Origin: Escherichia phage Flotzy
Reading direction: 5' to 3' (one strand)
Length of the DNA stretch: 42,657 nucleotides
Sequence record: PP925827.1
Shown here: positions 14,987 through 15,741 of the stretch, in pieces
Layout: the number at the start of each line of letters is the position of its first letter
Position numbering within the stretch: the first letter of the stretch is position 1
Notes under the pieces: generated by a model
Seen by the model: the letters and a program-made list of their open reading frames with translations, nothing else
What the model was told of the DNA's origin: nothing
Database searches by the model: none
Position numbers and translations under genes: made by a program

Positions 14987-15418
14987 ATGTTTCTGAAAAA
15001 AGAGAAGTTCACCTGGCAAACAGAATCCCTGACCATCTTCGAGCTGTCGGCGCTGCAGCGTATTGAGTACATCACGTTTATGGCCGCAGAGGAAAAGGCC
15101 GTCAGCGCTGACAGCGACGGCATCAGCGATCAGGAAATGACGGCCAGGCTGATAGGCTCAAATATTCGCTGCGGTGCGCGTTTGATCGCGATGTCTTTGT
15201 GGCATAACGATCCGGCTGGCACGGATGTGGAAACGCTTTATCAGCAGGTGCTTAGCGGCTGGCCGCCAGAGGCGATCGGTAAAGCAGAAATGGAAATAAA
15301 GCTGCTCTCCGGCATGCTCGTTCCGGTTGAGGGTGACAACGCTGCCGATCCGGATGCCTCAGCGGAGGCCGAAAGCGCTGAACCCGTTACGGCGGAAAAG
15401 CCCTTGCCAGCGAGCTGA
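14987..15418 (+). CDS. tail assembly chaperone (gpG-like)
   Basis: 143 aa acidic protein between V and tape measure. Confidence 0.75.
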   Translation: MFLKKEKFTWQTESLTIFELSALQRIEYITFMAAEEKAVSADSDGISDQEMTARLIGSNIRCGARLIAMSLWHNDPAGTDVETLYQQVLSGWPPEAIGKAEMEIKLLSGMLVPVEGDNAADPDASAEAESAEPVTAEKPLPAS

Positions 15419-15741
15419 AGTTTGTCCTGAATCTGGCGCGCGAGTTCGGGCGACCCGACTGGCGCGCCATGCTGGCTGGAATGACTTCCAGTGAGCTGGG
15501 CGACTGGCACCAGTTCTATCGGGAGCATTATTTTCAGGACGCGCAGCTCGATGCGCATTTCTCAGAGCTGCTTTATTCCATCTCCACTCTTTTCTTCCGC
15601 GACCCGGAACTTACCCCCGCACATTTCAGCCTGCTTTCTCCTTCCGGTATCGTCATCAGCGATGACGAGCCGGATGATGATGCGCTGATGACCGCAGCTG
15701 AGGGGATAACAGGAGGTATCCGATATGGCCCAGCAGATTAG
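15394..15741 (+). CDS. gpT-like extension expressed as G-T fusion by programmed -1 frameshift
   Basis: -1 frame opens at 15382 (stop TGA 15379-15381) and runs to 15741, overlapping tape-measure start; slippery-like GGAAAAG at 15394-15400 just before G stop. Confidence 0.7.

Follow-up and report, generated by a model that had tools for sequence, protein, structure and literature searches.

A probable programmed -1 frameshift site joining the tail assembly chaperone genes G and T of the phi80-like Escherichia phage Flotzy

How is the T domain of the tail assembly chaperone produced in Escherichia phage Flotzy, when the first start codon of its reading frame lies inside the conserved domain itself? 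The window analyzed here is the whole stretch of 42,657 nucleotides deposited as PP925827.1, and judged by its sequence it is a phi80-like siphovirus. The segment that holds G and T is 99.9% identical to that of Escherichia phage Eeyore (PP925821) and 95-96% identical to those of phi80 and LLS, and among 5,426 complete E. coli genomes, 37 carry it in prophage form, Nissle 1917 included. The order of the tail genes is that of lambda: a V-like gene, whose product has a C-terminal Ig-like domain (Big_2), is followed by G, T, an H-like gene and, according to Pfam, an M-like minor tail protein gene. The coordinates are collected in Table 1.

Gene G is a chaperone ORF of the gpG family, flanked by the major tail protein gene upstream and by the tape measure gene downstream, and in the ORF list it ends at the TGA at 15416-15418. 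The T domain is in the -1 frame and overlaps the 3' end of G. It was recognized both by PF06223 (Phage_tail_T, E = 1.5e-13) and by phrog_39 (E = 1.7e-42), and its last 17 nt are shared with the beginning of the tape measure gene. The profile phrog_32165, built from fused G-T proteins, matched both parts, with residues 1-138 of G aligned to profile positions 1-138 and T-frame residues 5-116 aligned to positions 137-249. The join between the two parts falls exactly at the heptamer GGAAAAG.

Table 1. Features of the G-T region and its neighbors in the Flotzy window.
Feature	Coordinates	Strand	Evidence
V-like major tail tube protein gene	14233..14976	+	Pfam Phage_TTP_12, E = 7.6e-68; Big_2, E = 5.5e-16
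Gene G, tail assembly chaperone, 143 aa (0-frame product)	14987..15418	+	PF06894 Phage_TAC_2, E = 2.2e-28; phrog_42, E = 8.6e-46
-1 frame TGA, upstream limit for a productive -1 shift	15379..15381	+	Sequence
Overlap open in both the G and the -1 (T) frames, 34 nt	15382..15415	+	Sequence
Slippery heptamer GGAAAAG	15394..15400	+	In-register G GAA AAG (GCG GAA AAG in the G frame)
T-frame coding sequence as read after the predicted shift, 113 codons + stop 15739-15741	15400..15741	+	Translation; PF06223; phrog_39; phrog_32165
Candidate mRNA structure, weakly supported, no function claimed	15407..15479	+	MFE fold
T-frame segment between the G stop and the first start codon	15419..15468	+	Codon-position counts and synonymous:nonsynonymous counts
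H-like tape measure protein gene	15725..18862	+	Pfam TMP_2, E = 6.8e-48; Tape_meas_lam_C, E = 1.3e-20; ORF list

The original prediction described a -1 frame that opens right after a TGA, crosses the G stop and runs to 15741, and it pointed to GGAAAAG, one base away from the GGGAAAG of lambda, as the slip site. The coordinates of this frame proved exact, and both the sequence and the register of the heptamer were confirmed. After the TGA the -1 frame contains 119 sense codons and is open from 15382 to its stop, although the position of this TGA is not conserved, as phi80 has GCA GAA there. The G frame around the site reads ...GCT GAA CCC GTT ACG GCG GAA AAG CCC TTG CCA GCG AGC TGA, which places G GAA AAG, a shift-prone heptamer, in the 0-frame register, inside the overlap and at a conserved position. 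The heptamer does not fit the canonical X XXY YYZ pattern: its first three bases are not identical, and a P-site shift from GAA to GGA leaves a G.U pair at the second position. No in-frame canonical X XXY YYZ was found in a scan of G. By inspection of 15383-15415, no other codon pair in the overlap permits cognate re-pairing in the A site after a -1 shift. The predicted G-T fusion consists of residues 1-138 of G (14987-15400) and, with base 15400 read a second time, the product of 15400-15738. It would be 251 aa long, with ...VTAEK of G followed directly by ALASELKF... of T, and this length agrees with the two-piece G-T CDS of phi80 (755 nt).

A second in-frame G GAA AAG is present at 15091-15097 (G codon 36); the heptamer is tolerated at this place inside G and has no evident function there. 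Knockout forms of the heptamer would be GGAGAAG or GCGAGAAA.

Statistics on the window alone were dropped as support for the site. GGAAAAG is not enriched, with nine copies in the window where shuffles predict 7.4, and the -1 frame remains open for at least 80 codons past the stop in 25 of 86 ORFs of at least 100 aa, these ORFs having been called mechanically on both strands and many of them not being real genes. Since neither the heptamer string nor the open frame is beyond chance by itself, the case rests on homology and conservation.

To follow the site across relatives, loci were collected from IMG/VR (80) and from one-genome-per-species GTDB contigs (56), and annotated phages were added. 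Among 58 distinct junctions from Enterobacterales phages and prophages, a heptamer was found at the same aligned position in every one: GGAAAAG in 55, the GGGAAAG of lambda in two and the AAAAAAG of Stx phages in one. GGAAAAG was likewise invariant in all 84 loci of a set composed mostly of close relatives. The homologous codons are GCG GGA AAG in lambda, GCG GAA AAG in the window, phi80, N15, mEp213 and Kp4865-4, and TCA AAA AAG in the Stx phages, and the lambda, phi80/N15-type and Stx sites all align within the motif EPV[ST]x[GEK]K. Prophages with GGAAAAG were present in Enterobacter, Citrobacter, Yokenella, Pluralibacter, Superficieibacter, Trabulsiella, Kluyvera, Leclercia, Atlantibacter, Rahnella, Kosakonia, Buttiauxella, Dryocola, Phytobacter and Klebsiella spallanzanii, and the identity of T within the GGAAAAG-carrying set falls to 43%. 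The length of the overlap varies among relatives from 22 to 160 nt, the latter in a single outlier, and the heptamer always lies within it. Even where the overlap is only 22 nt, as in Klebsiella phage Kp4865-4 and in prophages of Yokenella regensburgei and Pluralibacter, GGAAAAG is still inside.

On these junctions, GGAAAAG is the prevailing Enterobacterales form of the slip site and the GGGAAAG of lambda is a minority form. The description of GGAAAAG as a variant slippery site in the original prediction is correct insofar as the heptamer differs from that of lambda, but it is not a rare form. The wider proposal, that the G/G-T arrangement is retained in Flotzy, was borne out by the Pfam and PHROG matches, the homologous position of the heptamer, its invariance and the curated annotations of related phages.

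The conservation extends to synonymous sites. In 62 non-redundant G-T genes, the synonymous diversity at the codons GCG, GAA and AAG is 0.00, compared to a gene-wide mean of 0.30, and a scan along G-T found strict invariance at the heptamer codons only. The Lys codon of the site is always AAG and its Glu codon always GAA, whereas nearby conserved codons alternate between GAA (16) and GAG (14) and between AAG (11) and AAA (9). The first base of the heptamer, which is at a four-fold degenerate third position, is G in 57 of the 58 junctions. The codon that holds it is GCG in 39, CCG in nine, GTG in four, CTG in three and ACG in two (Ala, Pro, Val, Leu and Thr), and given the codon usage of Flotzy, a final G in five different codon families would arise by chance with a probability of about 0.006. 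At the third positions of the three codons before it, the entropy is 1.4-1.8 bits. The only first base other than G is in TCA, and it occurs in the lineage whose P-site codon is AAA (AAAAAAG). Conservation of the first G at a four-fold degenerate site is the pattern predicted by P-site re-pairing, and the comparison of these genes indicates that this base is under selection at a synonymous site.

We infer the production of a G-T fusion, a tandem-slip mechanism and a role in tail assembly as follows. The majority of ribosomes would finish G and release the 143-aa chaperone. A minority would slip back by one base at G GAA AAG while GAA occupies the P site and AAG the A site. The A-site tRNA-Lys (anticodon mnm5s2UUU) would then re-pair perfectly, from AAG to AAA. 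The P-site tRNA-Glu (anticodon mnm5s2UUC) would move from GAA to GGA, keeping Watson-Crick pairs at positions 1 and 3 and forming a G.U pair at position 2; by established codon-anticodon rules, this re-pairing should be near-cognate with a central wobble. The -1 codon on which the P-site tRNA would re-pair has the conserved preceding nucleotide as its first base. After the shift, the ribosome would read on in the -1 frame, beginning with GCC (15400-15402), until it reached the stop at 15739-15741, and the product would be the 251-aa G-T. If lambda is a guide, G-T would bind the tape measure protein through its G part and recruit the tail tube protein through its T part, and a low ratio of G-T to G, set by the slip frequency, would be needed for tail assembly.

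How often such a slip would occur can be approached through published assays. In lambda the slip frequency is about 4% (PMC3296357) and the ratio of G to G-T is about 30:1, and the roles of both proteins in tail assembly are established (PMC5009743). In a reconstituted E. coli system, AUG GAA AAG served as a "less slippery" control that gave mainly the 0-frame product, and the second-position mismatch of tRNA-Glu on GGA was called unfavorable (Peng et al., PMC6924986). In vivo, A_AAG tetramers without a stimulator gave about 0.15% frameshifting against a background of 0.11%, and A_AAG reached 5.6% only with the strong IS3 pseudoknot (Sharma et al., PMC4066793). Since the heptamer is weak in these assays and no conserved stimulator was found, the slip frequency in Flotzy may be well below the value for lambda. 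We consider it unlikely that G GAA AAG reaches a lambda-like few percent in vivo through greater tolerance of the central G.U or through a clade-specific stimulator. If it does, either cells tolerate a central G.U in the re-pairing of the P-site tRNA-Glu far more readily than the in vitro work suggests, or an unrecognized downstream structure (15407-15479) serves as a stimulator in the phi80/N15 clade.

These assays bear on an alternative, itself a variant of the explanation above, in which the frameshift takes place here but the A-site tRNA-Lys alone slips, on A AAG, and useful levels require pausing at the structure 15407-15479. In its favor, no tetramer in E. coli is more prone to shifting than A_AAG, which also reacts strongly to stimulators (PMC4066793), and G GAA AAG is poor in vitro without help (PMC6924986). 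Some features of the proposed structure speak for this alternative too. Its outer helix (15407-15415 paired with 15471-15479) starts 6 nt past the heptamer and encloses a G+C-rich hairpin at 15434-15469. Of the two regions folded (15394-15480 and 15401-15440), 15394-15480 gave an MFE of -41.3 kcal/mol, with z = -2.94 against dinucleotide shuffles. Compared with synonymous recodings, the native sequences of the phi80/N15 clade are more stable by about 2 sd, and only 0.00-0.05 of the recodings are as stable. One pair, 15409/15477, covaries cleanly: it is A-U in 18 sequences, G-C in eight and unpaired in four, a pattern that one or two evolutionary events may suffice to explain.

The same structure is less convincing outside that clade. 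When the MFE structure of the window was placed on 30 diverse junctions, 84% of the cells were paired, but most of these columns are invariant because of protein-coding constraint on the residues encoded there. RNAalifold on the 30 junctions gave an essentially unstructured consensus (-2.2 kcal/mol), and the GGAAAAG lineages of Kluyvera, Leclercia, Kosakonia and Phytobacter exhibited no excess stability (z from about -0.35 to +0.6). Past the site, synonymous diversity falls to 0.16-0.22, in part because of dual coding in the overlapping stretch, and it falls just as low at residues 44-57 of G and 173-186 of T. An Rfam scan of 15200-15800 gave no match, only two chance-level snoRNA hits (E > 0.5), and a promoter and terminator scan of 14900-15800 gave nothing relevant. 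Upstream of the heptamer, no Shine-Dalgarno-like element (GGAGG, AGGAG or GAGG) was found within 12 nt, a stretch that is variable across relatives. The nearest upstream GGAGG (15364-15368) is 25 nt from the heptamer and lacks conservation, and the site has no Shine-Dalgarno-like sequence about 10-14 nt upstream of the kind seen in dnaX and IS3. A downstream stimulatory structure, which the original prediction had suggested looking for, is therefore unsupported across the family and is represented only by this weak candidate in the phi80/N15 clade; from the comparison, a family-wide stimulator is not indicated and a clade-specific one is possible. The first G of the heptamer is kept at a four-fold degenerate site, and A replaces it exactly when the P-site codon is AAA. 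A first base that tracks the P-site codon is expected only if P-site re-pairing matters. Hence, slippage of the A-site tRNA alone appears improbable.

The second alternative is that T is an independent protein of 90 aa starting at ATG 15469, with no frameshift involved. The ORF 15469-15741 does exist, and a stand-alone T CDS is annotated in Eeyore, in PGAP RefSeq records of E. coli prophages, in phi80 JX871397 and in mEp213. In the ORF list this ATG is the first ATG, GTG or TTG of the T frame, and none is present between 15382 and 15469. However, the region in front of it evolves as coding sequence of T. With the 30 diverse junction sequences aligned to the window as the reference, the variable columns at 15419-15468, past the G stop, are 7 of 16, 4 of 17 and 15 of 17 at T-frame codon positions 1, 2 and 3, respectively. 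Counted against the window, codon differences in the T frame are synonymous in 103 cases and nonsynonymous in 61, compared to 26:139 and 4:161 in the other two frames. This pattern of substitutions indicates that 15419-15468 is translated in the T frame. Since that frame offers no start codon before 15469, it must be entered from G.

The stand-alone protein would also lack what is most conserved in T. Purifying selection acts in the T frame on the 23 codons ahead of the ATG (15400-15468), and these hold the most conserved residues; the motif ELxFxxxLAREfGRxDWRAM, encoded upstream of 15469, is near-invariant from phi80 to lambda and is the most conserved part of the T domain, and ATG 15469 itself encodes an internal Met of the conserved motif. 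The stretch just upstream of this ATG (GACTGGCGCGCC) has no Shine-Dalgarno match, and the fused profile phrog_32165 aligns across the junction. In lambda, T is made only as G-T, according to the account of Levin et al. (1993) given in PMC5009743. An independent T from ATG 15469 is accordingly very improbable.

That the arrangement is accidental or decayed, with no functional recoding, or that RNA polymerase slips on the A run, is hardly credible: the lack of enrichment of GGAAAAG in the window and the frequency of long open -1 frames past stops would fit an accident, but conservation of the heptamer across genera is strict even at synonymous sites, T is under purifying selection, and a run of four A is far below the lengths known to support transcriptional slippage. 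On the anatomy, the homology, the purifying selection on the T frame upstream of any start codon and the conservation of all seven bases documented in this analysis, we conclude with high confidence that this phi80-like siphovirus has here the programmed -1 frameshift site of G and T, its tail assembly chaperone genes.

The site would set the ratio of G to G-T needed for tail assembly, as is established in lambda. For annotation, automatic pipelines (PGAP, and the annotation of Eeyore) call a truncated T of 90 aa and miss the fusion; records of the phi80 group should carry a joined two-piece G-T CDS with the shift at GGAAAAG. For research on frameshifting, the common natural form in this family is a non-canonical heptamer that would put a G.U at the second position in the P site, which makes it a convenient natural test case. 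The prevalence of G GAA AAG is a refinement of known biology rather than a discovery, and only mildly useful.

In existing records, the same seven bases are annotated as a -1 slip site in phi80 (FN582354), N15 (AF064539) and LLS (PQ299149), and the underlying sequence was verified in each. The misc_feature labels read "slippery sequence for -1 translational frameshift" or "minus-one programmed translational frameshift site GGAAAAG", and a two-piece (joined) G-T CDS is given in FN582354 and PQ299149. In the open-access literature we found no report of GGAAAAG as a tail-chaperone slip site and none that measured it in phi80 or N15, and no direct protein evidence for a G-T fusion was found in the literature for Flotzy, phi80 or N15.

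The closest systems are phi80 (Lula; gp14/gpG-T, FN582354), LLS (PQ299149) and Eeyore (PP925821), which have the same genes at 95-99.9% nucleotide identity and an identical GGAAAAG at the same offset, 408-414 nt from the start of G. They differ in details. phi80 lacks an equivalent of the TGA at 15379-15381, so that its overlap is 82 nt compared to 34 in Flotzy, and it also lacks the second in-frame GGAAAAG found at codon 36 of Flotzy G. In Eeyore the frameshift was missed by automatic annotation. N15 (gp14/gp15, AF064539) has the same GGAAAAG, the same 34-nt overlap and a TGA at the same place, but its G is more diverged, with a DNA match only in the 3' end of G and the T part (about 75% identity). 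The tape measure gene of N15 is about 2.5 kb, compared to 3.1 kb in Flotzy; this length was judged from the homologous CDS of mEp237 and HK225, with the gp16 start at 10358.

Stx-converting lambdoid phages (VT1-Sakai, 1720a-02) have homologous G and T, an overlap of 34 nt and a slip site at the matching codons of the alignment, but their heptamer is A AAA AAG (TCA AAA AAG), a motif of the dnaX/IS911 type. E. coli dnaX and IS3/IS911 likewise use a tRNA-Lys that moves from AAG to AAA in the A site. These systems combine the canonical A AAA AAG with an upstream Shine-Dalgarno-like element and a downstream hairpin or pseudoknot (PMC6924986; PMC4066793), whereas at the Flotzy site neither kind of stimulator is evident or conserved.

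Lambda shares with Flotzy the homologous G and T domains, the order V-G-T-H, a slip at homologous codons and the same A-site AAG. The two differ in the P-site codon, which is GGA in lambda (G GGA AAG, canonical X XXY YYZ) and GAA in Flotzy, where re-pairing would give the central G.U, and lambda T has a C-terminal extension that Flotzy T does not have. The G/G-T system of lambda was reportedly worked out by Levin, Hendrix and Casjens in 1993 and by Xu, Hendrix and Duda in 2004, 2013 and 2014. The G/G-T site of Flotzy is already known in this sense, being a textbook frameshift at a heptamer annotated in phi80, N15 and LLS, and the present analysis goes slightly beyond the existing annotations in the prevalence of GGAAAAG, the selection on its first G and the routine mis-annotation of T by pipelines.

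The G reading frame contains another G GAA AAG heptamer, upstream of the slip site, at codons 36-37 (GAG GAA AAG GCC). Ribosomes slipping into the -1 frame at this copy would read four codons and then meet a TGA. If the heptamer by itself were appreciably slippery, part of G synthesis would be lost there. The upstream copy was found in many close relatives, and it is not conserved, since it is missing in phi80, mEp213, N15 and more distant G genes. Coordinates of this and the other features are collected in the table.

Positions in the window of features in and around the G-T region
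Feature	Position	Detail
Longest mechanical ORF upstream	10266-12560	764 aa, TTG start
Second heptamer within G	15091-15097	G frame
Stop after -1 slip at second heptamer	15109-15111	TGA
Imperfect G+C-rich hairpin	15434-15469	34 nt 3' of slip site
T called as separate ORF	15469-15741	90 aa, internal ATG
Overlap of tape measure gene start and T	15725-15741	ATG 17 nt ahead of T stop

In automatic or older annotations, T is called as a separate ORF from an internal ATG. Such a free-standing T was present in the records of phage Eeyore, phi80 (JX871397) and mEp213, and in PGAP annotation of E. coli prophages. This call loses 23 conserved residues and leaves out the G-T fusion. The frameshift is given in the curated records FN582354 (phi80), PQ299149 (LLS) and AF064539 (N15). 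At the other end of T, the tape measure gene begins before the T stop and shares the frame of G. Since unshifted ribosomes have already terminated ~300 nt upstream of this start, the tape measure gene must have its own, independent initiation. Farther upstream, the product of the longest ORF appeared, on reading its translation, to be a fused ClpP-type prohead protease and HK97-type major capsid protein.

A scan of genome contigs yielded loci (L112-L118, L120-L124, L135, L143, L144 and L147) with G-T sequences near-identical to lambda, in assemblies that carry the labels Neobacillus, Oceanobacillus, Kitasatospora, Chromatium, Tardiphaga, Shewanella, Pseudomonas, Paenibacillus, Leeuwenhoekiella, Enterococcus, Pseudoxanthomonas and Psychrobacter. 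Coverage, when stated in the name of the contig, was mostly low (~1x), with one Pseudomonas contig at ~9.6x, and some contigs were about the size of the lambda genome (48.4-48.5 kb). These loci look like lambda DNA contamination of sequencing rather than real prophages. Another locus, L094 (DAINBV010000046.1), is on a contig assigned to a 'Geobacteraceae bacterium' MAG, and its T region is 99% identical to the window. At 44,556 bp, the contig roughly matches a complete phi80-like genome in length, and it probably represents the genome of an enterobacterial phage that was mis-binned into this MAG.

The hairpin downstream of the slip site lies within the T coding sequence and reads UGGCGCGC...GCGCGCCA around UCGGG-CGA-CCCGA. 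It is conserved in the phi80, N15 and lambda lineages; in those of Leclercia, Atlantibacter and Buttiauxella the pairing was lost or shifted to a different register.
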